From Crocinitomicaceae bacterium (lineage in GTDB: Bacteria; Bacteroidota; Bacteroidia; Flavobacteriales_D; Crocinitomicaceae), in contig JBIIWA010000015.1 in NCBI GenBank assembly GCA_044339115.1, positions 4,818 to 68,817 of the forward strand: a stretch of DNA of 64,000 nt. Direction: 5' to 3'. Of this stretch, positions 44,982-64,000 are shown one piece after another. The notes under the pieces were generated by a model that worked only from the letters and a program-made list of their open reading frames with translations, did no database searches and was not told the DNA's origin. Both the position numbers and the translations under genes were made by a program. Numbering within the stretch: the first letter of the stretch is position 1; the number at the start of each line of letters is the position of its first letter.

Positions 44982-44992
44982 TTTTCTAGACT

Positions 44993-46117
44993 TTGAAAAG
45001 ATTGATAATTGAATTATTAGGCTTGGAGGATCATATTTTCTCCTCTGTTTCAGCTAGTGAAAAATCTTTGTTTTCACTAGTTGTTATTTGTTTTATGGGG
45101 TTTTTCCTCCTTTCAATTTTCTCTAGTTTTTTCCTTGCTTTTCTTATCACAGGATCTTATTTGTTTTCTTTTACACTTGGCTTGTTTTTAATTTTTGTGG
45201 TCAATTTTGTTATTCGTTTTTCATTATTAATTATAAAAAGACCAGTTTCCAAGGTGATTGAAGAAAATGTGGTGCTTACTGAGACAACACCAATTGCAAT
45301 CCCCATTGCAACGCCTAATGGTTCTTCTAAACTTTCCAACTTGCTCAAAAAGCTTGATGTTAGATCCATATTTACATCTGGACAAGTTCCATGGTTTAAT
45401 TTTACATTGCGGATCTTTTTCTCAACTGTTTTTGCATTAATATTAATTTTTCCGCTAACTGCTTTATTCAATAAATCAAGAGTCAATACTTTATTAGGTG
45501 AGAAAAGAATAGAATTGTATAAAGAAAATTATAAGAGTATTCACGCTGACTTTAAACTTAAAGTCAGCCGTCAGGAGCACCAAATCAGTAAGGCAACTAT
45601 CAAATTGAAAATGATATCTAAATCTGCTCAAAAAAATAGTATTAGTTTTAAAAATCAACTAGTTGAAATAGCCAATCTAAAGCAACAATTGTTAGCAATT
45701 AAAAATGAATTTTATAGTGGTATTTCAAATCAAATGGAGCTGTATAGAAGTAATTTGAATGCTGCTTATTTTCCGATTTTTATATTTAGAAATTGCCTGC
45801 ATTTAAATGGATTTTGGCTAATAGCATTCGTTATTTTTACACTTGTTTTTTTGCCACAAATTCTATTGGTAAGATTGAAGAACCACCCTGACTTTAATTA
45901 TGCTAAACTTTCTAATGAATACTATCATGGAATAATACATGGTCAATATCAAAAATCAAAAACGTGGGCGGAAGGTTATTTATCATCTATGAATAATCAA
46001 TCAAAAGTTGTTCTCAATTCAAAATATGACGATCCTCCATACAACACAAAGAAAATAAAACAAATACGCAAAGGGATATCTGATCTTGAATTTTACAATC
46101 AATTAAAAATAAATTGA
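44993..46117 (+). CDS. membrane protein with the same TM/coiled-coil/TM layout (divergent DUF4407-like?)
   Basis: TTG start. N-terminal TM cluster ending VVNFVIRFSLLI (compare IFNLDRFIV upstream), a further TM, a coiled-coil-like region, and a late TM (FWLIAFVIFTLVFLPQILLV). Confidence 0.45.
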   Translation: MKRLIIELLGLEDHIFSSVSASEKSLFSLVVICFMGFFLLSIFSSFFLAFLITGSYLFSFTLGLFLIFVVNFVIRFSLLIIKRPVSKVIEENVVLTETTPIAIPIATPNGSSKLSNLLKKLDVRSIFTSGQVPWFNFTLRIFFSTVFALILIFPLTALFNKSRVNTLLGEKRIELYKENYKSIHADFKLKVSRQEHQISKATIKLKMISKSAQKNSISFKNQLVEIANLKQQLLAIKNEFYSGISNQMELYRSNLNAAYFPIFIFRNCLHLNGFWLIAFVIFTLVFLPQILLVRLKNHPDFNYAKLSNEYYHGIIHGQYQKSKTWAEGYLSSMNNQSKVVLNSKYDDPPYNTKKIKQIRKGISDLEFYNQLKIN

Positions 46118-47376
46118 GTAGTATAACCAACTATTATAAAGGGTATTTAAAAGCCCAATTTACAACTGTTTCCAAACAGAAAATTGGATCAGTCAATGAT
46201 TCGCAATCTAAAATTATTTTGGAGCCTCGATTTTATTGCATGAATTTTATACAGGTAAAAGAAAATGAAATACCTACTTCTGCTTTGTTATCCAATACGC
46301 CTCATCTTTATCAAACTGGCCGCTTTGATATTGAATGTTATCCAGGTGAGGACCAGAAAAATGGGATTCGTAGAACTGCTACTAATATCATCTTACTGTT
46401 AAATAAAAAAAATCCCGATAATTCAGAACTTTCGAATGAATTAAGCTCCTGGCATGAATATGACTTTAAAGAGTCGAGAGAGAAACATTACGATAGCTTT
46501 CTTTCTAATAGTCAGGTAATGCCTCATGGAAGAATTGAGGGTGACGCCTACTTTTTAGTTGAAGAATTAATTGATTTAGAGGGTAAAGTAATTGTAAATT
46601 CTACTTCAGTTACGGCAAGTGGAAGCATGTCACCTGGATGTCTCGGTTTTCTAAGTGGGATTACGCAAGCAATTTATGGATTTAATCTACGACTGAAGAA
46701 TTGGTTAAATAGCTTATTTGGGAAAGCTTTTGGATCCAGTTTAATTGGACAAGAACCAAATGGTTGTATGCCATCTATGTTACCAAGTGGATGCTCCGGG
46801 CCTGGCTGCTCTCGTTTTGGTTGTGGTTTTTTAAGTTTATTACTCGGATTACTTCTGTTGCTTTGGTTGTTAAAAAACTTATTATATGGGGATTACAAAA
46901 CATCTTCTTCCAACAAAGAACGGATCATTCATGATACTATTTATGTTAATAAAGAAAAGCAGGACACATTAACTTATATAGATGAAACAACGAATACCAC
47001 AGTAAAAATGTTGAGTCTTCCCAATGTTCAATTTGAAAAGAATAAAACGAAATTACTATCGAGTTCATTGAGTGACTTAAATTCATTGGCTGATTATTTA
47101 TTGCAGAATAAAGAAATTAATGCGGAAATTATTGGTCATACCGATAGTGATGGCGATGCAACAGCAAATAAAGAATTGTCTCAATCTAGAGCTGAAGAAG
47201 TAAAAAGGTATATAGTGAGTTTAGGAGTTCAAGAATCTAGGATTAAAGCAACTGGAAAAGGGGAGTCCGAACCTAGAACAGAGAACGAAACTGCAGAAGG
47301 TCGTGCAATGAATAGAAGGGTAGAGGTGAAGTTAACACAGTATAATTCAACTAAAACCACCAGAACTAAAAAGTAA
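46114..47376 (+). CDS. OmpA/MotB-type peptidoglycan-binding-domain protein with unknown N-terminal domain and one TM
   Basis: C-terminal VQFEKNKTKLL...IIGHTDSDGDATANKELSQSRAEEVKRYIV...GKGESEP...NRRVEVKL is a clear OmpA_C-like domain. TTGA start/stop overlap with the upstream gene. Confidence 0.75.
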   Translation: MSSITNYYKGYLKAQFTTVSKQKIGSVNDSQSKIILEPRFYCMNFIQVKENEIPTSALLSNTPHLYQTGRFDIECYPGEDQKNGIRRTATNIILLLNKKNPDNSELSNELSSWHEYDFKESREKHYDSFLSNSQVMPHGRIEGDAYFLVEELIDLEGKVIVNSTSVTASGSMSPGCLGFLSGITQAIYGFNLRLKNWLNSLFGKAFGSSLIGQEPNGCMPSMLPSGCSGPGCSRFGCGFLSLLLGLLLLLWLLKNLLYGDYKTSSSNKERIIHDTIYVNKEKQDTLTYIDETTNTTVKMLSLPNVQFEKNKTKLLSSSLSDLNSLADYLLQNKEINAEIIGHTDSDGDATANKELSQSRAEEVKRYIVSLGVQESRIKATGKGESEPRTENETAEGRAMNRRVEVKLTQYNSTKTTRTKK

Positions 47377-47381
47377 CTTTA

Positions 47382-49004
47382 ATGAGCAGCGAAACCAATG
47401 TTTTATCGGATGTGATTTATTGTAAAGGCAAGCTCTTAGGTTATTCTGAGCCTGGAAAGAGTTCGCAAACCAATGGTAAAATTACCTTTTCTGATTTTTC
47501 TTGGAATTACATGCATATTGATGAAGTTCAGGTGATTGATTATTACCATTCAGAAGCATTAAAAGTGGGTGATTTTTGGTATAGAAAAGTTTTAAAAGGA
47601 AAGAAAAATTGGTGGATGTCACGTCAGTTAATTTGGAAATTTCCTACCTTAAGTTGGCCTAAGCGACCAGAAATATTTATTCCGAGAGGTGATGCCGAAT
47701 TTTATAGTGGAACTTTATACGAAGTCATTATTTCAGATTTTGCAATTATTGATAAAAGGAGTTTTGCAAGTCCGTTAATTCATTTGTCGGCTGATATTTA
47801 TTTTCAAATAAAGAAACCCCAAGTCCCACTAATTCCGGAGAAAAAAGTTACTGTAATTCAAAATAATACTTCTATCATTAATCAAGCAGTAACTGTTGGT
47901 GATGGTCTAAATGTATTGCCCGGTGACATAAGTGCAACGGCAATCGCAAGTGAACCAGTGATTGATAGTGGCCAAAATAAGCTGGCAGTTCCTAATAAAT
48001 CGAGGTCGAAAATAATGAGTTTCCTCCTATGGATTGCTGCATTATTTATCGCTTGGAAGTTCTTCCCTTTATTGGTTTTACCTATATTTTTAATAGGTCT
48101 TTCAACCATTTTATTTAGGTTTTTTAGAAAATCATGCCTTCTTATATTATTTTCTCTTATGGTATTTATTGTGGGAGGCTTATTACTGCTCTATTTTTTA
48201 TCAAATAACTATAAAACACATATTCCTCAGGACAATCGAAAGGGAACAATTAAAACCAGCCCTCCTAAATCCCAAAAAAATAAAGATGGAACTACTGATT
48301 TCACTTCAGAAAAAGAAATTCATTGGTGGGATTTTTTCAATGCAGATTATTGGGCAAGATACAATACAAGTAACACTATATTTTATGAGAGCCAACAACG
48401 ACATCAAAATATAGTATCCAATGAAACTACCAATAATAGTATTCAATTTTTTACAGATGTATACGGCCAAATGAACAAAATGGACAATTACCATATTGAT
48501 TCGTTGACAGAAATTTTTATCGCACATGCCGCTAAGGCTAATTTAAGTCCAATTAGAACTGCTGAAATGGTATCGACATTCATTCAGGAAATTCCATATT
48601 ACCTTGTTCATGATTTGAGCTGTCAGGAAGCATGTAAGCAAGGGGGTTTTACAGCACAATACCATAGCGAAAATAAACCATGTTTACCAAACATTCCTGC
48701 CGGCGTTCAATCCCCGTATGAGTTTATTCATAATTTAAAAGGTGATTGTGATACGCGTAGTTTATTAGCCTATTCGATTCTTAAAAAAATGGGTATTTCT
48801 TGTTCAGTTTGGGTGAGTGAAGCCTATGGACATAGTATTTTAGGTGTCGGATTACCCATTGGAACAGGAACATTTAAGCAAATTAATGGCGTGAAGCATT
48901 ATGCCGTTGAATTAACAGCCAAAGGATTTAAAATTGGTATGATTTCCCCAGACCATACCAATACTGATAATTGGGATATTACACTTTTTTATAATAAATA
49001 CTAA
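47382..49004 (+). CDS. membrane protein with C-terminal transglutaminase-like (papain-fold Cys-His) domain
   Basis: GDCDTRSLLAYSILKKMGISCSVWV...YGHSILGV. The Cys codon at 48747-48749 and His codon at 48831-48833 follow the G.C...a.l...lr..GI....v....H spacing of transglutaminase-core proteins. 2-3 TM segments in the middle. Confidence 0.5.
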   Translation: MSSETNVLSDVIYCKGKLLGYSEPGKSSQTNGKITFSDFSWNYMHIDEVQVIDYYHSEALKVGDFWYRKVLKGKKNWWMSRQLIWKFPTLSWPKRPEIFIPRGDAEFYSGTLYEVIISDFAIIDKRSFASPLIHLSADIYFQIKKPQVPLIPEKKVTVIQNNTSIINQAVTVGDGLNVLPGDISATAIASEPVIDSGQNKLAVPNKSRSKIMSFLLWIAALFIAWKFFPLLVLPIFLIGLSTILFRFFRKSCLLILFSLMVFIVGGLLLLYFLSNNYKTHIPQDNRKGTIKTSPPKSQKNKDGTTDFTSEKEIHWWDFFNADYWARYNTSNTIFYESQQRHQNIVSNETTNNSIQFFTDVYGQMNKMDNYHIDSLTEIFIAHAAKANLSPIRTAEMVSTFIQEIPYYLVHDLSCQEACKQGGFTAQYHSENKPCLPNIPAGVQSPYEFIHNLKGDCDTRSLLAYSILKKMGISCSVWVSEAYGHSILGVGLPIGTGTFKQINGVKHYAVELTAKGFKIGMISPDHTNTDNWDITLFYNKY

Positions 49005-49016
49005 ACTTTAAACATT

Positions 49017-49526
49017 ATGAACGCAATCATTATTATCCAGTTACTCGTTGCTTTTGTTATCGGGATCTCATCATTATTTATCATTTACAGAGCAGTTAAC
49101 TTCGCCATGTCAAAGTACTTTGGCTTGGACGACAAGGACAATACCTCTTTCACGGTGTTTCAAATGGGAATCATTATCTCTGGTGCACTCATCTTGTCAA
49201 CCATTATTGATCCTGCTATTAATGCTATTCGTATATTAAATCCTCAAGGCAGCATTAATATTTCACAAGTACTTACCTCTTTAGCATATGTAGGTCTCTT
49301 TGCACTCATAGGGATCGTTTGCACACTTGTCGTTATTGCAGCTGCCTTGGTTACCATCTTCCAACTTACAAAAATCAATGAAATTGAGGAGATGAAAAAT
49401 AATAAAATCAATGCCTCTTTAATTATCGTTGCCTTAATTATTGGTTTGTCCTTGATTATCGATAATTACTGTGGACAAATGTGTGAAACCTTAATTCCTT
49501 ATCCGGAAGTATTACAAATTCGTTAA
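49017..49526 (+). CDS. small polytopic membrane protein (about 4 TM)
   Basis: Four hydrophobic stretches in 169 aa; possibly DUF350-like, not confirmed. Confidence 0.45.
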   Translation: MNAIIIIQLLVAFVIGISSLFIIYRAVNFAMSKYFGLDDKDNTSFTVFQMGIIISGALILSTIIDPAINAIRILNPQGSINISQVLTSLAYVGLFALIGIVCTLVVIAAALVTIFQLTKINEIEEMKNNKINASLIIVALIIGLSLIIDNYCGQMCETLIPYPEVLQIR

Positions 49527-50484: not shown

Positions 50485-50550
50485 TTACCAAAGGTTATTA
50501 TTTTTATATGAATTCGCATCATTACCGAGAAATAATTAATATATTTAAAC

Positions 50551-53500
50551 ATGTCCCACCTCGAACCCACCTACCTTCGTTACATCTACGATGGTCTTCT
50601 CAAAGGAATCATCCATCCAGAAAATGCCGCAGAATTACCTGATGGCTTAATTGGTCTTTACGATGAAGCTTTCGATGAAAGAACTTCAGTCGTTGAACGC
50701 CAAAAACTGCTGCAGCGCTTTGCTATTTGGGCACTTTTGAAAAAAGAAGTAAGTGCAGCGTTTGTTGCTGAAGTATTGGGTGACACAGAAGATAAAATAC
50801 AAGATTTTATTTCTACATATAGTTCTTGGTTCAATAGCCCCGAAAGCGGCAAGTACCAGTTGTACCATGAGCGATTAAAAGTGTATTTATTGCAGAAGTT
50901 GAGTGATGGGGAAATTTATGGGCTTCACGAAAAACTTATTTCGCGATTAGAACAAGCCATCGAAGAGCAAAAAGCAGATGAATTTGAGTGGTATGGGTTG
51001 GAGTTTTTGGGTGAACTATATTTTTCCAATTTTGATGATAAACTATTTGAAATTTCCTTTAACAAAATATTCCAAGATAGACAAGTTTTTATTCTAGGTG
51101 ATTTTCGCATTGCATTTAAAAATCTTGAGTTATCAATACTGCTTGCAAAAAGCAGAAATGACAGAAAATCTATTGTTAAAGCAAGCACGGAAAAATTGAA
51201 AATTCGAAAACGATTTCATGAAAATTTCGACCTTCTTTATGGAAGTATCAACAACAATCACGCCATTACATCTAACTTACTTGGACACTATAATAATAAA
51301 ACAAAGGGATTAGTTTCAGTTTTACTTTTTCATGAGTTTTTTGAAGGGGACCTTCAGCTACACCCCTTAAAATCGTTGTTCATACATTTAATAATGGAGG
51401 ATTTATCATCCATAGAAGATGATCCAGTTAAACGTGGATGGTTATTATCTGTCCCTGAAATTGCTCAGGATCTTTATTTACATGAGTTAAATGAATTAGA
51501 TATTGATGACTTTCATTTCAGAAAGTTGATTCAGTTTATTACAAACGATGATGATTTAGAATACGAATTTAATTTTAATGAATCTATTTCTTTATTTAAC
51601 GATGACATAGAAACTTTAGAGGATAAAACAGAAGATTTCAATTTCGCGAATTATCTTGATGATTCAGATCAAGAGGTTCCTTCATTTCTCTCATTAGATA
51701 CGTCGGAGAACCCCTTTGAATCATTGAGTATGGATGATGAAAATGAATTTAAAGCATTTTTGGCAAGTATGGGTGATAACAATATCGATTTCGACTCTAA
51801 TAAAGTGGATATAGAAAGTAATTTAAGACCCATACATACTTTTGAAGAAAGAAAGTTGCAACTAATAAATGAATTAAATAACTCAAGTAATAAATTGCAA
51901 GATTTAATTCAATTTTCTAATGAGTTAATTCGACTAAAAGAAAATTTATTTTTAGCAGAAATAGGGCTTCAATTGCTACTATCGATTTCAGATTTTGTTA
52001 AATCAAGAGAATTTAATCATTTGTACCAGACAATTATTCAAGAGCTTACAGAACGAAAACAAGAAAGTAATCCTGTTGTTTTTTCTCATGAGGTAAAAGC
52101 ATGCTGCGAAGTATTATTAGAACAACATTTCTATACTGAAGCTTTGGAGTTAATTCCATTTATCTCACAGTCGGAAATGCGTGATGATTTATATTCTTCT
52201 GCATTGAATTCATCTTATGATTTTGATAAAGAAATTTATGCAAATGTTTTGAAGAATGCATGTCAAATACATAAATTAGACACATCTATTTACATCAATA
52301 AAGGCGAATTAATTCGTGAGTTTATTTTGCAATGCAAAACGAATGAATTAGATGATATTTTTTCAAGCTCAGATAGCTTCTTTCTAACTATGCTATGTGG
52401 AAGTATTATTGAAGACGATAGACTTTTCATCAGAATTACTGACGATTATAATCTACTAAAAGTATTGATTCCGGCATTTAAGAAGACTATGAATCATTCA
52501 TTACAGAGTTTTTCAGAAATTTTCGAGATTCATTGTAATTTACAGAATGGTGAAATACCACTTTCCGAAAAAGATTTCCAATCACTGTGTAAACAAATTA
52601 GTAAAGTTGACAATAAGGAAGAACTTAAAAAGCTCTATTCCTGCTTATATCTTTTCTCCCAAAATGAGCAAATAACAGCTTTCATCCTGAGTCAATTCAA
52701 TTCGATGGTAAAAGAAAATAAAAAGATCATTTCAGAAATATTACATGATAAAAATGAACATCTTTATTTATTCAAAAGCACACTCATTATTTGGAGGAGA
52801 TTAAATGCCGCACAAAAAGAAAAGTATAAAAGTATATTCAATGAAATATATAATCAAACCAAAAATAATGAATTGAATGAAAGAAGTGCCTGTATTTTTC
52901 TGATAAATAAAGAACTTGGGTTCGAAGATCATATTTTTAGTAAGCAAAAACTCGAGTTGTCGGTTTCAATATTACTTTTAAAAAATGGATATGTAGAGGA
53001 GGCAATTGAAATAGCTACACTTTGCAAAGATTCTAATCCTGCAATTATTCAGCTTGAATTTTGGATTGAACTACTTGAACATAAAGATGATTCCGAAAAT
53101 CTAGTTAATAATTTTATTAACTTCGTAAATGATAAATTTGAGGTCTTTTCTGAGGAAATATCAATAGAAGATCAATCTTTTGTCTATGTCCCCCTTTTTG
53201 CGAGAGCGTTGAACAAACTTTATGAATTCGATAAAGTGGTTGAATTTAAATCTTTATTTCAGATATTATTGAATCATATCGAATCACTTTCTGTTTCGCT
53301 AAATGAAAAGCGCAAACTTCTTTATGTTTTTTCATTTAGCATTAATTTCAATGTTTTTAAATATATACTTTGCCTGGCAAACAAAAACCAACAACTTTTG
53401 TTAGCGAGTTCTCTTTCTTTTTTAAAAGGATATCATAAGAATATTCAGGATAAGATTCTCGAGGAATTATGTGTTATTAGAGATGATGCCGATTTGGTTG

Positions 53501-53622
53501 AAAATGCATTACTCCACCTTTCTAAATGCGATCATTTTTATTCTGATTTATTTGATACTATGAATGAAACTAGTGAAATTTTTAATTTTGAGTATTGGCT
53601 GACTTTAAAATCTCCCAAATAA
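50551..53622 (+). CDS. large helical protein A: conserved 154-aa STAND-helical/winged-helix-like N-module plus a unique arm of about 870 aa
   Basis: The N-module is ~92% identical to that of the next gene (13 differences in 154 aa, hand count). ELPDGLIGLYDEAFDER and GKYQLYHERLKVYLLQKL resemble the post-P-loop helical/WH region of NACHT/STAND ATPases. The rest is helical and AT-rich-encoded, with an acidic segment at aa 331-422. Confidence 0.6.
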   Translation: MSHLEPTYLRYIYDGLLKGIIHPENAAELPDGLIGLYDEAFDERTSVVERQKLLQRFAIWALLKKEVSAAFVAEVLGDTEDKIQDFISTYSSWFNSPESGKYQLYHERLKVYLLQKLSDGEIYGLHEKLISRLEQAIEEQKADEFEWYGLEFLGELYFSNFDDKLFEISFNKIFQDRQVFILGDFRIAFKNLELSILLAKSRNDRKSIVKASTEKLKIRKRFHENFDLLYGSINNNHAITSNLLGHYNNKTKGLVSVLLFHEFFEGDLQLHPLKSLFIHLIMEDLSSIEDDPVKRGWLLSVPEIAQDLYLHELNELDIDDFHFRKLIQFITNDDDLEYEFNFNESISLFNDDIETLEDKTEDFNFANYLDDSDQEVPSFLSLDTSENPFESLSMDDENEFKAFLASMGDNNIDFDSNKVDIESNLRPIHTFEERKLQLINELNNSSNKLQDLIQFSNELIRLKENLFLAEIGLQLLLSISDFVKSREFNHLYQTIIQELTERKQESNPVVFSHEVKACCEVLLEQHFYTEALELIPFISQSEMRDDLYSSALNSSYDFDKEIYANVLKNACQIHKLDTSIYINKGELIREFILQCKTNELDDIFSSSDSFFLTMLCGSIIEDDRLFIRITDDYNLLKVLIPAFKKTMNHSLQSFSEIFEIHCNLQNGEIPLSEKDFQSLCKQISKVDNKEELKKLYSCLYLFSQNEQITAFILSQFNSMVKENKKIISEILHDKNEHLYLFKSTLIIWRRLNAAQKEKYKSIFNEIYNQTKNNELNERSACIFLINKELGFEDHIFSKQKLELSVSILLLKNGYVEEAIEIATLCKDSNPAIIQLEFWIELLEHKDDSENLVNNFINFVNDKFEVFSEEISIEDQSFVYVPLFARALNKLYEFDKVVEFKSLFQILLNHIESLSVSLNEKRKLLYVFSFSINFNVFKYILCLANKNQQLLLASSLSFLKGYHKNIQDKILEELCVIRDDADLVENALLHLSKCDHFYSDLFDTMNETSEIFNFEYWLTLKSPK

Positions 53623-53624
53623 CC

Positions 53625-56600
53625 ATGCCTCACCTCGAACCCACCTACCTCCGTTACATCTACGATGGTCTTCTGAAAGGAAGCATCCATCCGGAGAATG
53701 CTGCTGAATTGCCCGATGGCTTGATTGGTCTTTATGAAGAAGCCTTCGATGAGCGTACTTCGGTAGTGGAACGCCAAAAACTATTACAACGCTTTGCTAT
53801 TTGGGCTTTATTGAAAAAAGAAGTAAGTGCAGCGTTTGTAGCCGAGGTTTTGGGCGAAACCGAAGATGATATTCAGGATTTTATATCTACTTACAGCGCC
53901 TGGTTCAACAGCCCAGAAAGTGGTAAGTACCAATTGTACCATGAGCGCTTGAAGGTGTATTTGTTGCAGAAGTTGAGTGAGGGGGAGGTGCATGCGTTAC
54001 ACGAGAAACTAATTTTTCGATTAGAGCAAGCCATTGCAGAACAAAAAACGGATGAGTTTGAGTGGTATGGCTTGGAGTTTTTGGGAGGACATCTAACTTT
54101 AAGTTGTTTTCAGAAAAACACAAAAGAAAAGTACAACAGATTAATGAATTTCGCCTTGAATGATAATTATCATAATAGACAATTTGAATTTAGTTTTCAA
54201 TACCAATGGACATTTAACCTATTGCATTCTGTTCAGTATTTAACTATCGTTTTACGGAAAAGGGATGTTGAGTTAATTAATTTAAAATTTATAGAAGTCA
54301 ATGAGCGATTACAAGCCTCAATTCATGAGTTAATATATTTGGTTAGGGATGGGAATATTGAGATTACACTAGTTAGAATTAATTGTCTAATGTCTCAAAG
54401 TGAAAATGAAGTAAAAACTAAGCTAAGATTGATTTTATTGATTTTAACTGATATCTGTGTCAACAATAAAAGTATTAATTCAAATGAGCATTATCTAATT
54501 AGCGAACTGCTTCAAATCCTAGAGTTTGAATTTAAAAAATATAAAATTGATATTTTCGATTTAATCCCTCCCAATATATTTTTTCAAATCGTTTTGTTTT
54601 TGAAAGATTCAACTTTAGATTATAAATGCCTTCTTAATTTGGTTATATATGATTGGGGTTTTTCAGGAATTTCAAAAATTCTGACTCCAGATTTCATTAA
54701 GTTTTTCATTTCTTCAAATAAATATAGGTCTTTTGAAATCGAAGGGCTTTTTGTTGAAATAAGACAGATTGCATATATGAACCAAGTTGGGCTTGCCCAA
54801 ACAGGAATAGACTGTGCAATAATGGCTTTGTTAAACGAATATGCGCCTGAGAGATTAGCCGATTACTTGAGAACATCATTTAGAGATTTTTTAAATGCTG
54901 TTTCTTATGATTGGATTAAAACTTGGTTGAATAAGGTGATGTGCCATCTTCATGTTGATTTCATTGTTAAATATCTAGGAGGAGATTTATTATCGGATCA
55001 TATTCCAACTAATTTAGCTAATGAGATTGTTAGAATTGAAAAAAAATTAGAAATAATGGATTCAATTCTTTTAAAGGTTTATGAGTCTAACAGTAAATCA
55101 AACGAAATTAAAGAACTTATTGAGTATTCAGAAAATTTATTAGCGTATTACTTAGAAACAGAAACCTCGAAAATTCGTTCTGAAAAAGTAATGCATTTTT
55201 TTCAATTAAAATTGCTAATTGATACATTATCTAGAAAGGAAATTAGCAGCTTAATTAATCAAACAATTGACATCATAAAAGACGAATCGGATGACATATA
55301 CTTAAAACAAATAATAAGTACGCTTTACTTTTTTAAATTGTCGGAATATGCTCCGAGGTTTATTGCGTTATATGTTGATATAAAGTATGCCAAAAGCAGT
55401 GCGTTCTTAAATGGGCTATTAATGAATAATCAAATAATTGCGATTAATCAAATTGAAAATGTAGATGAGAATTATCTAGATGGTTTGATTTATAAGTTAA
55501 ATTATGATATTTGGAGAAATCAGTTATCTAATACTTCAATTTTATTTTTAGAAAATTTAAAATGGTTTATTTCACAAATCAAATCGGATAATTCAGTCAC
55601 CAATATAAACGATGACTATTGGCAAATTATTCTGGGAATCATTTTTAATTCTGATATTCTTGAATGTTACATTGACACCTATTTAAGTGAAGCTTTACGA
55701 TTTTCTCCTGATTTAATTAAAAAGAGATTTTATCATTTTGTAGCTAAGCCAAAACTAATGAAAAGGCATTCAGGTGTCGAATTGGATGTCATTAGAATGA
55801 TTGATTTGGAGATTGAATTATTTAAAAAGACTCAAACAGGACAAATTGAAAAGTTATATGATTCACTTCTTAGCACTTTTTGTGAGGCCCTTATTGAAGT
55901 AAATTGGTCCATGAAAAATAAAGATGTTTATCGCTTTGCTAAATTAAAATTGGAGAAAAGTGAGATTCAAGTTGCAATTAATTGTTTATCCGAAATTGAT
56001 GTTTCTTCTCAATGTTTTGTGGAATTAGTTTTTGATATTTCTTTAAAACTTTTCCAAGGTAATGAAGAAATAGATTTTGCATTGGAAATCTTACAATATG
56101 TAAAACATCATTTTGAATATAAAGAGTATGATAACGGAGAATCCTACAGCTACTATCATATTGATCATGGTAAACAATATGTGGATTTAGTTGATAATTT
56201 ATTGTTTAAAATTCTTTCTTTTCATCAATTAAACATAAAGCAATTTCAAGAATTATTGTTCAATGTTGGAGTAATAGATGACAATTACAACTTAACAACT
56301 AAGAATTTCCATTCTCCATCATTTATTAGAAACATCATCGATAAAGAGGTAAAAACATTCATTTGTGATTTATTAAATCCATCAAATACAAGTGGCCATA
56401 ATAATCTATTTTCTGTTAAACTTGGAATTAAAAGTCTTCTTGAATATGAATTAAACGAGATTGAAATTCAAAATATATTAAATGAATTAATTGAATATCT
56501 TAACCAATCATACGAACAAGTTGAAATTAATCTCGATTTCAGTAAATTTTTTAATAATATGGGTTTGTCAAATATTAGTTTCTTTAATGTTATTCATAAG

Positions 56601-57200
56601 CACAACATTATTAATCTAAAAGTGGCATTAAAATCTTTAGGGATTGCAAAACGCCTACCTATTTATTCATTCTGTGAAATCCTCATTACTAAATCAATTA
56701 TTGATAAAACAGAATCTTCACTAATAACTATTTTTCCCGAATTTGAAAACAAGTCTGAACTTACCGAATATTTACATGAAATATGTTTAAAGATAAAGCA
56801 AAGTAGAAATGTTTATTTGAAAGATTTTTATCATTTCACTTTCCTTACAGAAAATACGAATAGGGATGATTTAATTAAAGAATTATTTCAAAAACGAAAA
56901 TTTAAACCTAAAAAACATTTGGTTCAACTATTCTATTTGGATGATTTTACAAGAAGAAAATTTCTTGTAAGTTTTTACAATAACATTTCAAATTTTTATA
57001 ATTCCGAAATTAATTGGTATTTAGTATATCATCTTTGTAGGTCTGATTATAATTTATTGAAGCACTTTAATTCAGAACGGATAAAAATACTTCTAATGCA
57101 GGGAAAAATACCAAAAAAACTAAGTAATTTGGTGACAGATAAAAAGGAATATCTTTCAGAGATAAACAAGTTAAACAATTTAAGTGTAGACTTAATATGA
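53625..57200 (+). CDS. large helical protein B: the same 154-aa N-module plus a different arm of about 1040 aa
   Basis: ATG at 53625 (MPHLEPTYLRYIYDG) is chosen by homology with MSHLEPTYLRYIYDG of gene A; it lies 2 nt after A's stop. The ORF-track start at 53595 would overlap A. Confidence 0.6.
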   Translation: MPHLEPTYLRYIYDGLLKGSIHPENAAELPDGLIGLYEEAFDERTSVVERQKLLQRFAIWALLKKEVSAAFVAEVLGETEDDIQDFISTYSAWFNSPESGKYQLYHERLKVYLLQKLSEGEVHALHEKLIFRLEQAIAEQKTDEFEWYGLEFLGGHLTLSCFQKNTKEKYNRLMNFALNDNYHNRQFEFSFQYQWTFNLLHSVQYLTIVLRKRDVELINLKFIEVNERLQASIHELIYLVRDGNIEITLVRINCLMSQSENEVKTKLRLILLILTDICVNNKSINSNEHYLISELLQILEFEFKKYKIDIFDLIPPNIFFQIVLFLKDSTLDYKCLLNLVIYDWGFSGISKILTPDFIKFFISSNKYRSFEIEGLFVEIRQIAYMNQVGLAQTGIDCAIMALLNEYAPERLADYLRTSFRDFLNAVSYDWIKTWLNKVMCHLHVDFIVKYLGGDLLSDHIPTNLANEIVRIEKKLEIMDSILLKVYESNSKSNEIKELIEYSENLLAYYLETETSKIRSEKVMHFFQLKLLIDTLSRKEISSLINQTIDIIKDESDDIYLKQIISTLYFFKLSEYAPRFIALYVDIKYAKSSAFLNGLLMNNQIIAINQIENVDENYLDGLIYKLNYDIWRNQLSNTSILFLENLKWFISQIKSDNSVTNINDDYWQIILGIIFNSDILECYIDTYLSEALRFSPDLIKKRFYHFVAKPKLMKRHSGVELDVIRMIDLEIELFKKTQTGQIEKLYDSLLSTFCEALIEVNWSMKNKDVYRFAKLKLEKSEIQVAINCLSEIDVSSQCFVELVFDISLKLFQGNEEIDFALEILQYVKHHFEYKEYDNGESYSYYHIDHGKQYVDLVDNLLFKILSFHQLNIKQFQELLFNVGVIDDNYNLTTKNFHSPSFIRNIIDKEVKTFICDLLNPSNTSGHNNLFSVKLGIKSLLEYELNEIEIQNILNELIEYLNQSYEQVEINLDFSKFFNNMGLSNISFFNVIHKHNIINLKVALKSLGIAKRLPIYSFCEILITKSIIDKTESSLITIFPEFENKSELTEYLHEICLKIKQSRNVYLKDFYHFTFLTENTNRDDLIKELFQKRKFKPKKHLVQLFYLDDFTRRKFLVSFYNNISNFYNSEINWYLVYHLCRSDYNLLKHFNSERIKILLMQGKIPKKLSNLVTDKKEYLSEINKLNNLSVDLI

Positions 57201-57907
57201 ATAAAGAAACCCACCCATTTTTAGAACTAGGAAAAGTGCCAAATGCTACCAAACTAATACTCGGTTCATTTCCAGTATATTCCATAACGCTTCCCGATAG
57301 TGAAGAAAAAAATAGAATTCGTAAAAGTGACGGATCCGTTCAATTCTTTTATGGCAGTTGTAGAAGTAGTTTTTGGGGACTTTATCATTTGTACATAGAC
57401 AATGGTTTGGAAATTCCAATTACTCCAAAAGAGGCATTGTCAAGCCTTGTCAAAAATCAAATTGCAATTTCAGATGTAATTTCGGAGTGTGAAAGGAATG
57501 GAAAAAGTGCTTTGGATAAAGATCTGAAAAAGCGTATTTATAACATTCAAATGATGAATGAGTATTTGGATTCAGGTATCACCAAAATTCTGTGTACATC
57601 AAAAGGTGTAATGGATATGATTCATGATCAGATTGCAAAAAAGTCCAAAGAATTTATTTTTCAGGAAGATGAATCTTATAAATGGCAAACTGAGGTAATG
57701 TCAAAACTGAAAGGAAGTGAGATTCAAATAAAAAAGTTGATTTGCAGACAATATGTTTATAAGGGTAAAACAATTCGATTAATTTCAATTCCTTCGCCTG
57801 GCTCACCACAAAGACAATTAAAACAATTTGGATTTACAGGTGATGATTGGAGAGAGTATGCAGATAAGTATTTTGAATTTTCATTTAAATGGCTAAAAAT
57901 AGATTAA
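57197..57907 (+). CDS. uracil-DNA-glycosylase-superfamily protein, family-6 (hypoxanthine/deoxyinosine DNA glycosylase)-like
   Basis: THPF...KLILGSFPVYS...FFYGSCRSSFWGL...IAISDVISECER.G.SALDKDL...ILCTSKGV parallels the remembered HDG pattern (HPF, LILGsFPs, YYghp.NrFW, iaLwDVi.sC...gS.D). ATGA overlap with gene B. Confidence 0.5.
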   Translation: MNKETHPFLELGKVPNATKLILGSFPVYSITLPDSEEKNRIRKSDGSVQFFYGSCRSSFWGLYHLYIDNGLEIPITPKEALSSLVKNQIAISDVISECERNGKSALDKDLKKRIYNIQMMNEYLDSGITKILCTSKGVMDMIHDQIAKKSKEFIFQEDESYKWQTEVMSKLKGSEIQIKKLICRQYVYKGKTIRLISIPSPGSPQRQLKQFGFTGDDWREYADKYFEFSFKWLKID

Positions 57908-57910
57908 GTT

Positions 57911-58207
57911 ATGGATCATAAAACAAAATGTAATTGTTGCGACTGTGTTTGGCAACGTGTTGTTAAAAATCAAGGTGCAGTTCTTAGGTTGAAATTTCAA
58001 AAGCAAATTTCATATAAAATTGAAAAGAATATGATCGTTTGGTTATCAATGGAACCCACCCAGCGAGTACTTTTTAGGCAAAGACGAATTAGTATTTGTA
58101 ATTCAATTCCATCTCGTCAAAACAATTTTGGACCCTCTAGCTATCCTGGTACAGCAACATCTTACAAATGGGCATTATTAAATGATGATCGAATTTGGCT
58201 ATTATGA
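57911..58207 (+). CDS. small hypothetical protein with N-terminal Cys cluster
   Basis: The 98-aa ORF exactly fills the gap between flanking genes (3-nt gap upstream, ATGA-type overlap downstream). Carries CNCCDC at aa 7-12. Confidence 0.4.
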   Translation: MDHKTKCNCCDCVWQRVVKNQGAVLRLKFQKQISYKIEKNMIVWLSMEPTQRVLFRQRRISICNSIPSRQNNFGPSSYPGTATSYKWALLNDDRIWLL

Positions 58208-59736
58208 AATTCAAAGAAATTTCTAACCTCCCAACACGCCTCACCGAAAAAATCAAGGCAGTCCAATCCGAAGAAGACGCCTACGCAGCGGATGAACTCG
58301 TTGAATTAGGCGAAGAAATTCTTTCGCAGTTGGCTGCAATGGGAATTGCCGTTTACTTGCAACAGGCGAAACAAAAAGATGTGTTTAATGACTTTTTGAT
58401 TTCTTTGTTTTTGTCGAATGGACATGCCTATAATGCGGGTCCCTTGTATCGCTGGGCGGCAAATATGATCAAAGATGCGGAGGGAGATCAAGCATTAGAA
58501 TTACGTCCATTTTTCTGGCAAACGAAGGAAGGAAAAGAAGTGTTAAATGAGGAAATTCATCATTTGGCAAGTTTGCGGAATGCGGTAATGCATGGTTTCT
58601 TTGTCCTGCCGCCTGAACGTAACCGTGAAGAGGCTCAAAAGATGGAAGTGATACTCGAGTCTATGGTAAAGGCAAACTTATTTCAAAGTTCCTTTGGAAG
58701 TTTCCATTTCATCGACCAACAAGGATTCAATGGACATTGGAACATACAGAATATACAAACTTGGAACCTGTTCAATCAAGAATTTCCATTTGGAAAGTTA
58801 GCGATTCGAGTGGCACATGAATATGCCGATGATTTCCGAAAAGAAGAAGATCAATTTGCCTCGGAGAAAGGCAAGTCCTTGTCAGATGTGGAAGTAGAAG
58901 TAAATAACTTACTCGATAAAGGGAAAGGTGCTTTAGTCTGCTGGTATCAAGCAGAAAGTAATCAAGGTTTGGCTTCCTACCGAACCGCTATTCAATCTTT
59001 GGACAAAGACAAGTACTTACCGATTTACTATGCCTTACATGCGAATGGAGCAACATTTACAGCTTCTTTTCTGGAACAGGAGATCGGTAAAGCATTGTAT
59101 CAACTAACTTCAGATGAAAAAGCGCTAAAAGAACCTTTCAAATACCTAAAAGCACAAAAAGGAAAATTATCAAAGAAACCAATTATCGTCTTGCATGATA
59201 TTCATATTGCGTTGTTTAGCCCGAATCATTTAACCAATTTATTTAATACGCTATATGATTTAGATGTTCCGATTGTAGCTACATCCTTGCATTATCCTTA
59301 CCTCAAACGTTTCTTTAATATGCAATTGACTTTGTCAGAGAAACATACAAATTCATTGGAACAAGTGAATCTTTCTTTAGTCAATTATGTACGTTTTAAA
59401 GGTCCAAGTCCGGACCAAGAAACGGAAAAAGAGAATTTTGAGATCCTGAAAAAAATAGTGCACGAGATACATGAGCAATTGGAGAAAAACCAACGTGTAG
59501 TTGCTCGTCGTTTTGCAGATGATAATAACTATCCCATTGAATTTGTTCATGAGGCATTTGGAATATTAAGTCCATTTTACCAAGCAGAAAAAGAGGCCTT
59601 TAAAGAAGACGAGGTGGATGAATTGTATGGTTTTCCTAAATCCATTGAAGAGAGCTCACGAATATTCTTAACTTTAGGTAGACGTGATGTGAAACTAGAG
59701 TACCAGCATAAAGTATTGTCAAATGCCAAACAATAA
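58195..59736 (+). CDS. Rx4H (HEPN-like) N-domain plus degenerate P-loop NTPase-like domain (probably an inactive paralogue of the next gene)
   Basis: LRNAVMH at 58576-58593 (aa 128-133). LLDKGKGALVCWYQAESNQGLAS occupies the place of Walker A, PIIVLHDIHIAL the place of Walker B, and VPIVATSLHYP is sensor-1-like. An alternative ATG at 58204 gives an ATGA overlap. Confidence 0.5.
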   Translation: MAIMKFKEISNLPTRLTEKIKAVQSEEDAYAADELVELGEEILSQLAAMGIAVYLQQAKQKDVFNDFLISLFLSNGHAYNAGPLYRWAANMIKDAEGDQALELRPFFWQTKEGKEVLNEEIHHLASLRNAVMHGFFVLPPERNREEAQKMEVILESMVKANLFQSSFGSFHFIDQQGFNGHWNIQNIQTWNLFNQEFPFGKLAIRVAHEYADDFRKEEDQFASEKGKSLSDVEVEVNNLLDKGKGALVCWYQAESNQGLASYRTAIQSLDKDKYLPIYYALHANGATFTASFLEQEIGKALYQLTSDEKALKEPFKYLKAQKGKLSKKPIIVLHDIHIALFSPNHLTNLFNTLYDLDVPIVATSLHYPYLKRFFNMQLTLSEKHTNSLEQVNLSLVNYVRFKGPSPDQETEKENFEILKKIVHEIHEQLEKNQRVVARRFADDNNYPIEFVHEAFGILSPFYQAEKEAFKEDEVDELYGFPKSIEESSRIFLTLGRRDVKLEYQHKVLSNAKQ

Positions 59737-59739
59737 TCT

Positions 59740-61227
59740 ATGAATCCAATCGATAAATACCACGAGCGTTTTCTTCAACTTAAAAAGGAGAAAGAAATTA
59801 AACCAGATTCAGAGGTTATTTTGAAATTGATTGAATCAGATCCAGCAGGTTTGAACAATTATTACATGGCTGCTTTGGGCATGAGCACACTGCTTCTTCG
59901 TTTCGGAGCTGTCATTCAATTGTGTCAAAAGTTTGAGAACTTGGATGAACATGGAGATGCACTTTTCCTCAAACAAATTCTTGATAATTTGAGAGAGAGT
60001 TTGCCTTCCGATACCAGTTGGAAAAATTTATGGGCAATGTCCACCGAGGATGAAGTGTGGCTGAAGCCAGTCCTGAAGCCCAAAAATGGTGAGGCCTTAT
60101 TAAATCGTTTTATCACATTTCGTAATCGGTATGTTCATCAATTAATTAGAATTGAAGAAGCTTTTTTACCGCAATTGATTACCAGTATTACCTTATTTGA
60201 TGAAATGGCGGAATTAACTTCGCTGTTTAAAGATGGTGACTTAGTTTGTTTAGATGGAAAATATGTTTGGAACCAAAACGATAAGATTATTTCCTTACAT
60301 CCATATGTTCAAGCAGGTAAACAAGGTGATGATCCCTATATTTTTCAAGGCTTGTATGACAATAAATCACAGGCACATCTACTCAATTTACATCTGGGAG
60401 ACGAAGATAAGCAACCCGCAAATGATCACCTAGAACCGAATTTCACTCCAATTAGAGAGGCGATTAGGGGAGGAGCGGGGCAAGTCTTCGACCATAGCGA
60501 GCGAATTGCGTACTACCAATCTTGTTTTGTTGGAAGAGATCGTGAAAAAGCAGCCATCCTTGATTTTTGTAACGGTTCAGGGGAACAAAATCTACTCTGT
60601 GTGAAATCACCTGCTGGAATGGGTAAGGGAGCACTTATCGCTGATGTCATCGAACAGCTAAAAAAAGATAAAACACAGGTTCTGTATCACTTTTGTGGTG
60701 CTGGAATCCAAAATAGCCTTCATGCTACACTGTATCATTTAATAATTCAGGGGAAAGAGTATTGGAATCGTTCCGATGAATCCTTAGACCGTAAACTGAA
60801 TCGCTTGCCCTCAAAATTCATAGATGTGATTCATTTGTTTCAGTCTTTATTGAGTAAAGAAAACCTGAAATTAAATGCTAAAAACGAATCTGGCAATCTG
60901 GTCATCATCATTGACGGCCTAGACGAGGCACAAGTCGCTTATTCGCAACTTAAAATTTCAGATTGGTTTTATTCCTATAACGAGAAGGAGGAACCTGAAG
61001 AAGATTGGAGAAGTGCATCTAATATCCGATGGATTTTCACCTACCGGTGCGATGACGATGGAACTGAATCGTTTTTTCAATTTCCAAAAATGAAGGAATT
61101 AGCAGAAATTCAAATCCTTCAACCCTTAACTGGTCTTTCTCCTGAAGCGGTGGATGAAGCGTTCAAAGATTTTGTGGTTTCTAAGGAATTTAAAGAAATG
61201 GTGATTGAAAAAGCAGAAATAATATAA
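59740..61227 (+). CDS. Rx4H (HEPN-like) N-domain plus STAND-type P-loop NTPase core, lacking winged-helix and repeat regions
   Basis: FRNRYVH at 60121-60138 (aa 128-133). Walker A-like SPAGMGKGA at 60607-60633. Walker B LVIIIDGLDEA at 60898-60930. IRWIFTYRCDD is sensor-1-like. ILQPLTGLSPEAVDEAF follows, and the protein stops 25 aa later. Confidence 0.65.
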   Translation: MNPIDKYHERFLQLKKEKEIKPDSEVILKLIESDPAGLNNYYMAALGMSTLLLRFGAVIQLCQKFENLDEHGDALFLKQILDNLRESLPSDTSWKNLWAMSTEDEVWLKPVLKPKNGEALLNRFITFRNRYVHQLIRIEEAFLPQLITSITLFDEMAELTSLFKDGDLVCLDGKYVWNQNDKIISLHPYVQAGKQGDDPYIFQGLYDNKSQAHLLNLHLGDEDKQPANDHLEPNFTPIREAIRGGAGQVFDHSERIAYYQSCFVGRDREKAAILDFCNGSGEQNLLCVKSPAGMGKGALIADVIEQLKKDKTQVLYHFCGAGIQNSLHATLYHLIIQGKEYWNRSDESLDRKLNRLPSKFIDVIHLFQSLLSKENLKLNAKNESGNLVIIIDGLDEAQVAYSQLKISDWFYSYNEKEEPEEDWRSASNIRWIFTYRCDDDGTESFFQFPKMKELAEIQILQPLTGLSPEAVDEAFKDFVVSKEFKEMVIEKAEII

Positions 61228-61943: not shown

Positions 61944-61972
61944 AAGTAATTTTATAGTTTAGAATACAATCG

Positions 61973-62464: not shown

Positions 62465-62536
62465 TTAGCCAATCTAAGTTCCCTTAGAATTACTTTTTTC
62501 ATAACTTTAAGTATAATTCTTAATTCATATACTACT

Positions 62537-63016: not shown

Positions 63017-64000
63017 TCACTTTCGTTTTTTCCATTTATTCAAAAATTTTCTTTTTTTGTCAGGAAATAAATAAGCAACAAGGGGAACAGCCAAAGAGAG
63101 AAGTAGGGTGGAGACTAAGAAATAAAATCCAAACTTGCCCCATTTCAAGGATTTCCGTGTGTTTTCCATAAAACCAAAAACGGGTTCTATGCTACTTATT
63201 GAAGTCATGGCGCCAACTACAGCAAGTAACATGTTTGATCGTTTTTGCTGTTCTTCTTGGATCGCTTGAGAAATGCGATTAATACGTTCTTGAAATTGTT
63301 TTAATTCAGTGTCAATTTGAAGGCTTTTCCTTAAACCATGATAAATTAGATTTGGCAAGAAATTATAGGAAATATGACTGATATTATAGGTATTTAAATA
63401 AGATTCAAATTCATCTCGCGTTTTCACAGAATCGGCTATCATATTAGAATTATAGCGGAACAAATTGTATTTCAAGAATAGGTTGTATAGGTAAATTCTA
63501 AAATACATATTAGAAATCGTATTGTATTTCCCTTTCTGTTGTTCCTCATTTCCATTTAGTAAATTATATCCAACTGTAGTAAAGGAATCAAACAATGGCA
63601 ACATAGCATAATTTTGAAACACCTCTATTTTATCCGTCATTATCTCTTCAAAGTAAGAATTACTTGGTGTTAATGCGTGGCTCCCATTGGCAGCATTTAT
63701 AGGAGAAACTGTTCCGATATCATAAAGTAGTTCACTGATAACTTCGGGAGCTTTAATTTCATCACATTCTACCAAATCAACTACTGTAAATAATTTAAAT
63801 TTCGAACCTGAAAATTCATCCACATTTACGGGAGCATCTTTTGGGCTAGAACTTATTTTTATGTTATTTAAACAGTTCTTTTCAATCCAATTCACCCATT
63901 CTGTAGTTTCTCCGTCAAAAATCACTTCTTTATTAAAGTCCCTTGCGCAATTTGTTAGCTCTGAAATTTCTGATAATCGCTGTTCAGGAGAATAGAGTTC
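63017..64000 (-). CDS. hypothetical protein with coiled coil and two C-terminal TM helices (CorA-like topology); 5' end outside the window
   Basis: The reading frame stays open from 63925 to nt 64000 (ELYSPEQRLSEISELTNCARDFNKE-VIFDG...), so the GTG at 63925 is probably not the start. C-terminus: MLLAVVGAMTSISSIEPVFGFMEN...FGFYFLVSTLLLSLAVPLVAYLF, then a KKRK tail. Confidence 0.5.
   Translation of the reverse strand, partial: ELYSPEQRLSEISELTNCARDFNKEVIFDGETTEWVNWIEKNCLNNIKISSSPKDAPVNVDEFSGSKFKLFTVVDLVECDEIKAPEVISELLYDIGTVSPINAANGSHALTPSNSYFEEIMTDKIEVFQNYAMLPLFDSFTTVGYNLLNGNEEQQKGKYNTISNMYFRIYLYNLFLKYNLFRYNSNMIADSVKTRDEFESYLNTYNISHISYNFLPNLIYHGLRKSLQIDTELKQFQERINRISQAIQEEQQKRSNMLLAVVGAMTSISSIEPVFGFMENTRKSLKWGKFGFYFLVSTLLLSLAVPLVAYLFPDKKRKFLNKWKKRK

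Follow-up and report, generated by a model that had tools for sequence, protein, structure and literature searches.

Receptors of the STAND and NLR class are usually described as single chains that fuse a sensor, a switch and an effector. Paired or helper NLRs are familiar from plants, in the sensor/executor pairs RGA5/RGA4 and RRS1/RPS4, and from animals, in NAIP-NLRC4; and several HEPN RNases, among them the KEN module of RNase L/Ire1, Csm6/Csx1, Cas13 with its HEPN1 and HEPN2, and HepT, need two heads to form each active site. In prokaryotes, single-chain HEPN-STAND and HEPN-STAND-TPR proteins are known (Anantharaman et al., PMC3710099), HEPN is listed among the effectors of bNACHT proteins (Kibby et al., 10.1101/2022.07.19.500537; PMC13581612), and an inactive STAND domain (iSTAND) is a component of the vWA-MoxR ternary conflict systems (Kaur et al. 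2020, PMC7159879). The locus described here lies in a 64,000-nucleotide stretch of contig JBIIWA010000015.1 of a Crocinitomicaceae bacterium (GCA_044339115.1), the whole of which is referred to as the window. It comprises two adjacent genes, P1 and P2, and two large upstream genes, big1 and big2, and appears to represent a STAND receptor of this general kind that is distributed over several genes.

Division of the receptor chain within the lid

As judged from sequence, P2 is the front half of an NLR-type receptor, and the rear half of that receptor is encoded by big1 and big2 (Table 1). The P2 chain stops 35 residues past LQPLxGL, the motif that opens the lid, and before the GNPLYL-type motif. 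Beyond its P-loop core, the polypeptide is thus left without a full lid (HD1), a winged helix and a sensor, and the remainder is found in the open reading frames (ORFs) at 50551-53622 and 53625-57200, both of which begin HLEPTYLRYIYDGL...YQLYHERLKVYL.

Undivided relatives of P2 show the same order of parts in one chain. The protein encoded at L030:546-5159 (1537 residues) has an FRNGYAH head, a NACHT match above threshold (33.6 bits), a GKS Walker A and TPR_12 repeats. P2 aligns to its residues 111-307, the C-terminal lid fragment of P2 corresponds to residues 425-457, directly before SEGNPLYL, and the sensor proteins take over from residue 461, which lies within SEGNPLYL, with big1 matching residues 461-572 and big2 residues 461-754 (E 1e-6). 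The Pfam family AAA_lid_TANC1, at a sub-threshold score, spans the position of the split junction in this protein (residues 442-492), and the rear part of the protein shares 25% identity with the sensor proteins of the split system (E 1.6e-90). The L030 locus also carries a split set (sensor, P1, P2, sensor), to which the unsplit protein is a paralogue. An unsplit orthologue is found at L052:1858-7215 (1785 residues), of which residues 46-508 align to P2 (35% identity, E 1e-63) and residues 521-734 to the N-terminus of the big proteins (E 3e-25), with a 12-residue linker between the halves. The same arrangement occurs in L054 (8886 onwards), and in both L052 and L054 the gene adjoining the unsplit orthologue is P1-like with intact Walker motifs.

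The site of division is itself conserved. In 10 distant Bacteroidota loci the sensor gene starts 0-9 nucleotides from the P2 stop, with overlapping or near-overlapping codons, and the junction has a conserved form (...EKGxI and stop / M..IDPxYLR). In the clade of the window the sensor gene or genes stand upstream of P1 and are duplicated. Fusion of P2 to a sensor by recoding or frameshifting is impossible in this clade, since the sensor genes precede P1.

Table 1. Positions of the P1-P2 system, its proposed functional motifs and neighbouring genes in the window (aa, amino acids)
Feature	Position	Strand	Remarks
Membrane-gene block	43208..49526	+	166 aa, DUF4407, 374 aa, OmpA-domain, 540 aa, DUF350 (Pfam); possibly associated
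big1	50551..53622	+	proposed sensor subunit 1, 1023 aa; constant N-terminal module and unique variable region
big1 constant docking module (aa 1-155)	50551..51015	+	predicted rest of lid and winged-helix-like part
big1 lid motif EPTYLRYIYDGL			GNPLYL-type; winged-helix-like part YQLYHERLKVYL
big2	53625..57200	+	proposed sensor subunit 2, 1191 aa from ATG 53625 (ORF call starts at TTG 53595)
big2 constant module	53625-54089	+	followed by a variable region unrelated to that of big1
Accessory gene	57197..57907	+	236 aa, UDG-superfamily-like (GSFP ... FW); start overlaps big2 stop; between sensors and P1
Small ORF	57911..58207	+	98 aa; overlaps P1 start by 4 nucleotides
P1	58204..59736	+	510 aa from ATG; longer TTG-start ORF 58195-59736 has 513 aa
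P1 layout			Rx4H helical head, degenerate STAND nucleotide-binding domain, lid, winged-helix-like part, conserved C-terminal tail GRRDVKLEY
P1 RNAVMH (R125-H130)	58576..58593	+	candidate HEPN catalytic motif
P1 degenerate P-loop WYQAESNQGLAS	58942..58977	+	without GK[ST]
P1 degenerate Walker B PIIVLHDIHIAL	59179..59214	+	
P2	59740..61227	+	495 aa; Rx4H helical head, NACHT-type P-loop core, first lid helices
P2 RNRYVH (R128-H133)	60121..60138	+	candidate HEPN catalytic motif
P2 Walker A SPAGMGKGAL	60607..60636	+	K296 present; Gly at the Ser/Thr position
P2 Walker B LVIIIDGLDEA	60898..60930	+	
P2 C-terminal lid fragment LQPLTGLSPEAV ... EKAEII	61117..61224	+	
CorA-like membrane protein	63017..63925	-	302 aa; possibly associated with the system

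The nucleotide-binding core of P2 is well supported by family matches. Residues 263-416 match Pfam NPHP3_N (49.3 bits, cut-off 24.8) and AAA_16 (33.5 bits, cut-off 32.6) and reach 20 bits against the NACHT profile, below the cut-off of that family; NPHP3_N is matched by all of 30 diverse members of the P2 family. The Walker A lysine (K296) is invariant and AGMGKG invariant or nearly so, and in Walker B residues D392, D395 and A397 are invariant and E396 nearly so. R436 (FTYR) is also invariant and, from its position, may be sensor-1-like. The residue after the Walker A lysine is glycine (GKG) in 29 of the 30 members and serine (GKS) in one, and the unsplit orthologues have GFGKS or GYGKS. A preliminary description of the sequence had called P2 apparently active. 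This holds for the lysine and for Walker B, but not for Walker A as a whole, which is not of the GK[ST] form. From these motifs P2 probably binds nucleotide, and its capacity for hydrolysis is uncertain.

The partner protein P1 and the Rx4H heads

Both genes named in the preliminary description exist as ORFs of the extent it gave, every peptide that it quoted is found where it placed it, and the RNIIAH motif of the nearby HepT is present (41071-41088, minus strand). The ATG at 58204 is taken as the start of P1 because homologues are about 510 residues long and begin there. The nucleotide-binding region of P1 has no family match. In the AlphaFold2 (AF2) model of P1 (predicted local distance difference test, pLDDT, 77) a strand-loop-helix alpha/beta domain begins at residue 243 and is followed by helical and winged-helix-like parts; Foldseek matches of this model include Orc4, DnaA, Sr35, Dark, Apaf-1, CED-4 and Avs3 (E 1e-4 to 7e-3). 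The layout of P1 is that of P2 extended by a complete lid and winged helix in the same chain, with no sensor. In place of GxxxxGK[ST] the protein has QAESNQG, and in place of hhhhDD it has VLHDIH. More specifically, WYQAESNQGLAS follows strand 243-248 of the model and is aligned with SPAGMGKGAL of P2, and PIIVLHDIHIAL lies on strand 325-331 and is aligned with LVIIIDGLDEA. These equivalent places had been proposed in the preliminary description; they were reproduced by profile-profile alignment and coincide with strand 1/P-loop and strand 3 of the model. The proposed absence of the Walker A lysine and of the Walker B acids was likewise confirmed, and the sensor-1 arginine is lost too. Within the P1 family the Walker A and B positions are not conserved, and the Walker B position is not acidic. 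Two distant P1-like proteins have intact motifs (GGGLGSGKS and LLDDIH in P0265, GGSGVGKT and LIDDIH in P0305). Because distant relatives of P1 keep GxxxxGK[ST] and hhhhDD, P1 is, on the evidence of its alignments and predicted model, a degenerate STAND nucleoside triphosphatase (NTPase) that has lost its catalytic motifs.

That P1 and P2 are tandem paralogues had also been suggested, and the outcome depended on the depth of the alignments. BLASTP of P1 against P2 gave nothing significant, and hhalign of shallow alignments returned a probability of 1%. More diverse alignments yielded 166 colinear columns (E 2.9e-5, 74%), and after addition of the most distant relatives 221 columns (E 4.8e-5, 68%), compared with E 0.16-0.58 in controls against an unrelated helical module. 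The match is colinear through the Rx4H helix, the linker, the P-loop, strand 2 and Walker B. Between P1 and the N-terminal module of the sensors hhalign gave E 0.58, and the winged-helix regions line up in this alignment, which is not significant. The alignments thus make paralogy of P1 and P2 likely, though it is not proven.

P2 is found downstream of P1 in all 35 loci that have room for it, and in 32 loci it lies within 700 nucleotides, mostly with a 4-nucleotide overlap of stop and start codons. Since the two are obligate neighbours, a P1-P2 hetero-oligomer is reasonable. The hetero-oligomeric switch envisaged in the preliminary description is to that extent retained, but as a scheme of two proteins it is wrong, the sensor half being encoded upstream.

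Both proteins carry an Rx4H motif, as had been noted; the further claim that it occupies the same residue numbers in both applies only with the TTG start of P1, the ATG start placing it at residues 125-130. A bare Rx4H appears in at least one place in 43% of shuffled P1 sequences and 36% of shuffled P2 sequences, and since the motif alone is so frequent it is its conservation that makes it meaningful. In both families, in shallow as well as deep alignments, the arginine, the asparagine that follows it and the histidine are invariant (to 23% identity in P1 and 45% in P2). The invariant residues of P1 are R125, N126, H130, G131, F133 and P136, and those of P2, in 30 sequences, are F124, R128, N129, V132 and H133. 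HEPN proteins are recognized by an Rx4-6H motif that is conserved and in which the arginine is directly followed by a polar residue, N, D or H (PMC3710099); both RNAVMH of P1 and RNRYVH of P2 have such a residue. The HEPN motif is placed at the end of a helix (PMC3710099), with which the heads agree: in the AF2 models the motif closes helix 116-129 at its C-terminus in P1 and helix 120-133 in P2 (model pLDDT 57); in each case a loop and then a long helix come after it, and helices and a hairpin before it.

Family searches with the heads returned HEPN families at scores below threshold. The isolated P1 head has HEPN_LA2681 as its sole Pfam match (E 0.0013), the head of P0265 has one match, to HEPN_RiboL-PSP (E 0.0026; residues 22-160 cover profile positions 45-182 of 191), and the head of an unsplit P2 orthologue likewise has one, to RiboL-PSP. 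The three best Pfam matches of the P2 family consensus are HepT-like, HEPN_RiboL-PSP and HepT-like_2 (E 0.027-0.07); HepT-like is matched, again below threshold, by 7 of the 30 P2 members, and one P2 homologue is annotated DUF86 by JGI. Profile searches of the Protein Data Bank (PDB) sequences with full-length and head alignments gave only spurious matches (rhodanese, RavO, a zinc finger). Thus, the motif that had been presented as a HEPN hallmark is invariant in both families, but the matches to HEPN families all fall below the curated thresholds. It is plausible, and on the sequence patterns probable, that the P1 and P2 heads are HEPN-like.

Distribution, sensor turnover and neighbouring genes

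Among 185,579 species genomes at least 50 loci were recovered, a count that is limited by the search pattern. All 50 are from metagenome-assembled genomes (MAGs) and nearly all from Bacteroidota; L051, a partial locus of 33% identity, is labelled Actinomyces. The P1 family comprises 468 cluster representatives and the P2 family 522, from MAGs of Flavobacteriales, Crocinitomicaceae and other Bacteroidota. Among 120 listed representatives of the 522 P2 matches nearly all are 494-506 residues long, and three are shorter and partial. Every one of the 17 loci with 5 kb or more of flanking sequence, which are termed well-flanked below, has sensor genes, in one to three copies.

The sensors consist of a constant and a variable part. 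Identity between big1 and big2 is about 90% in the first 155 or so residues (80% over a 186-residue BLASTP alignment), corresponding to a DNA repeat of 84% identity (50546-50845 / 53620-53919). The variable region that follows, of about 850-1050 residues, has no similarity between the two, and that of big1 is Pfam-silent. The guanine-plus-cytosine content of the constant modules (41-45%; 41% in big1) and of P1 and P2 (38%) differs from that of the variable parts (29% in 51016-53619 and 26.5% in 54090-57197), the window average being 33.7%.

Genome pairs whose flanks are 90-94% identical in DNA differ within the locus. Comparison of L020:4498-10001 with window 51008-58225 shows flanks of 94% DNA identity and 79% identity in P1-P2, with no nucleotide similarity in the sensor variable region or the accessory gene. 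In the comparison of L027 with window 58652-59478, a segment within P1, its nucleotide-binding domain, has no nucleotide similarity and is bordered on both sides by sequence of 84-92% identity. These patterns suggest recombination within the locus, and such rapid turnover is typical of conflict systems.

Two small genes separate the sensors from P1. The accessory gene matches the NCBIfam family TIGR04274 (DNA-deoxyinosine glycosylase; E 2.1e-5, far below the cut-off) and has no PDB sequence match; relatives of it occur in 6 of the 17 well-flanked loci, and L020 has an unrelated 331-residue gene instead. The small ORF has no family match and is conserved only in close relatives (L002 96%, L027 97%, L003 69%, L008 68%).

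Two membrane elements recur, each adjoining the system in 9 of the 17 well-flanked loci. The CorA-like protein matches the PADLOC CorA-like model at E 3e-7 (window copy) to 2e-10. In L001 its homologue follows P2 directly (L001:11502-13635), elsewhere it forms a pair with a 266-residue gene, and the window copy has an N-terminus 135 residues shorter than that of L001. The DUF4407/OmpA/DUF350 block varies in order and orientation (also L001:13660-19879, L025, L034 and L045), lying on the upstream side in the window and on the downstream side in L001; L034 and L045 carry it on the opposite strand. A literature search for DUF4407 returned nothing relevant.

Closely following P2 are three genes of 237, 163 and 144 residues (61230-62971, plus strand) without family matches, the first with a glycine-rich N-terminus and several hydrophobic segments and the second with a signal-peptide-like start; outside the window they are confined to the closest relatives (L020, 89-93%), except that the 163-residue gene is also present in L007 and L010. 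Some relatives (L001:7607-10004; L007) have extra genes between or beside P1 and P2, which encode a classical AAA+ ATPase of 345 residues (weakly DolB/IetA-like in PADLOC), proteins of 77 and 215 residues, and a 153-residue protein with a weak match to the FtsK-gamma winged helix.

Further upstream lies an MNT-HepT toxin-antitoxin pair (40975-41612, minus strand) in which the HepT frame is interrupted: of the 112-123 residues of its homologues, the first 30-41 are encoded in another frame than the C-terminal 74-residue ORF with RNIIAH. Either the gene is a pseudogene with a frameshift or the assembly is in error here. A Fic/DOC family protein (39385-40272, plus strand; Pfam E 6e-21) adjoins the pair, and a 230-residue protein without family match (42086-42778) is nearby. 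Together with the STAND system these genes may make up a small conflict-gene island. A tRNA scan found none, and a promoter and terminator scan found no more sites than in shuffled sequence, with a consensus that is unsuited to Bacteroidota.

Competing interpretations and comparison with known systems

The features of the locus can be combined in an NLR-like (STAND NTPase) conflict system of three components, which is split into separate genes and uses the Rx4H heads as a HEPN-type RNase, an interpretation that stands about an even chance of being right. One of the alternative sensor subunits would complete P2 in trans, and the variable region of this subunit would recognize or bind a molecule of the invader. 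Nucleotide binding by the reconstituted P2-sensor receptor would then drive co-assembly with the NTPase-dead P1, for which the recruitment of a partner NLR by a sensor NLR may serve as a model. The Rx4H heads of P1 and P2 would pair as a HEPN-type dimer, the composite site of which would cleave RNA and arrest the infected cell; the abortive-infection-type RNase suggested in the preliminary description is likewise an inference. Because R, N and H stay invariant in P1, its sequence suggests that P1 supplies half of the active site and is not a brake only. A more specific form, a plug-in receptor in which P2 is incomplete alone, any hypervariable sensor donates the second lid half and the winged helix, and firing needs the HEPN half-site of P1, is put forward tentatively and with somewhat less assurance.

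A number of observations weigh against such an RNase-based conflict system. No HEPN profile reaches its curated Pfam threshold for either head. In hhalign, either head against a HepT alignment gives E of about 0.5, no better than the control, and only the motif aligns; the HepT alignment is narrow, consisting of 104 close homologues of the HepT in the window, which makes the test a weak one. Aligned to each other on their own, the heads of P1 and P2 reach E 0.058. No HEPN structure is among the best 50 Foldseek matches for either model, the P2 model being poor (pLDDT 57) and its Foldseek search uninformative. ATP hydrolysis by P2 is doubtful because glycine stands where a serine or threonine coordinates Mg2+. 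No relatives appeared in plasmid, phage and viral-contig searches, and none of the defence models in PADLOC 2.0 is significantly matched by P1, P2 or the sensors: the best P2 matches are at E 0.002-0.007 (PDC-S20, Nhi, AbiO and STAND_TPR), P1 and the sensors have none, and the unsplit L030 protein matches STAND_TPR at E 1.6e-5. NCBIfam scans of P1, P2 and the sensors returned nothing usable. The conservation of P1 and P2, at 45-95% identity across Bacteroidota families, is unusually high for immunity genes. Finally, the CorA-like or DUF4407/OmpA membrane genes could be the real output.

That last possibility belongs to an alternative, itself rather unlikely, in which the Rx4H heads are non-catalytic adaptors or oligomerisation domains and the effector is the CorA-like protein or the DUF4407/OmpA/DUF350 block, acting by membrane damage. 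Non-catalytic heads would be in keeping with HEPN matches that are all sub-threshold and with the failure of the formal profile and structure tests, but are harder to reconcile with the invariance of R, N and H, which extends to 23-45% identity and lies where the HEPN structure would have it, or with HEPN families being the only Pfam matches of the isolated heads. As to the membrane elements, they recur beside the system in varying arrangement and across different orders, and PADLOC lists CorA-like proteins as CRISPR type III-associated; however, each is absent from 8 of the 17 well-flanked loci, and neither is found beside the two genes of the unsplit relatives L052 and L054.

It is also unlikely that P1 is a brake, that is, an NTPase-dead paralogue that holds the P2 head in an inactive heterodimer until sensor activation frees P2 to form P2-P2 HEPN dimers. 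Every nucleotide-binding motif is lost in P1, the coupled stop and start codons of P1 and P2 are as expected of stoichiometric partners, and inactive STAND or enzyme paralogues are known as regulators or decoys in other conflict systems (PMC7159879). A pure inhibitor, however, hardly explains the invariance of R125, N126 and H130. The existence of distant P1-like proteins with intact Walker motifs also argues against a brake, since it indicates that the partner role of P1 predates the loss of its NTPase motifs.

An improbable explanation is that the locus has no role in immunity and is a lineage-specific module for signalling or RNA processing in freshwater and marine Bacteroidota, built on a STAND scaffold and, for example, linked to the envelope. 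The high conservation of P1 and P2, the absence of matches to known defence models and of finds on mobile elements, and the envelope genes that recur nearby would all be consistent with this. Against it are the rarity of the system in the genomes searched (50 loci, in the pattern-limited count), the sensor swaps between near-identical genomes, the mosaicism of P1 and the one to three sensor copies, which are hallmarks of conflict systems, as well as an architecture that matches HEPN-STAND-TPR proteins assigned to defence (PMC3710099). Least credible is gene decay, in which P2 and the large genes would be fragments of a broken STAND gene and P1 a dead pseudo-paralogue: P2 does end inside a domain and P1 is without catalytic motifs, but a decay origin of the split is effectively refuted by break point, lengths and junctions that are conserved across about 500 cluster representatives and at least 35 loci, together with coupled stop and start codons and residues that are strongly conserved throughout.

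If the split conflict system proposed above is real, it would be a conserved natural case of a switch cut within its lid, with the sensor half as a separate, exchangeable gene. It would imply that the NTPase module can be reconstituted in trans and would offer a simple genetic route to combinatorial specificity, in which a cell swaps or multiplies specificities through its sensor genes and keeps one conserved signalling core. The relatives would then form an evolutionary series that leads from an intact pair with an unsplit receptor to a degenerate partner with a split receptor, and the locus would be a tractable system for the contribution of a dead NTPase paralogue to the activation of a HEPN-type effector. 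It is a candidate defence system, not yet catalogued, and occurs widely among uncultured Bacteroidota of freshwater and marine habitats. A literature search for split STAND receptors returned nothing relevant, and no description was found of a STAND protein split within the lid, of exchangeable sensor genes, or of obligate pairing with an NTPase-dead paralogue.

Several known systems share parts of this organization. With the HEPN RNases that need two heads it has in common an RNxxxH motif predicted to lie where helix 3 ends, and two non-identical heads whose motifs are both intact, as in Cas13; it differs in that the candidate heads are on two different STAND proteins and match HEPN families only below threshold. 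The STAND domain of P1 resembles iSTAND in being a conserved component of a putative conflict system without catalytic motifs. Unlike iSTAND, P1 has an Rx4H head, a partner in which the Walker A lysine and the Walker B acids are retained, and distant relatives that are intact; domain scans of the neighbours in the window and in L001 found no vWA or MoxR domain. As in Avs and bNACHT proteins, an effector, a STAND NTPase and a variable C-terminal sensor appear to be combined, and it is the sensor end that diversifies, but here they form an obligate multi-gene set, and P1, P2 and the sensors have no significant PADLOC match to Avs or NACHT models.

The closest architecture is that of HEPN-STAND-TPR proteins, with which the order of modules is shared (Rx4H head, NACHT-type P-loop, lid and winged helix, helical repeats), L030:546-5159 being a local example and L052:1858-7215 and L054 true unsplit orthologues. 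The present system departs from it in that the chain is cut within the lid into P2 and a separate sensor with one to three alternative genes, that Walker A is GKG rather than GKS, and that a second, NTPase-dead paralogue is always present. The paired NLRs offer an analogy, with no orthology implied: in both cases adjacent paralogous NLR-type proteins occur together, one of them tolerates a non-functional P-loop, and a ligand-sensing partner recruits, or here would recruit, one that has no sensor. In the Bacteroidota locus the sensor stands on a polypeptide of its own and a HEPN RNase is proposed as the output, and with these differences the system may prove to be a prokaryotic parallel to sensor/helper NLR pairs.

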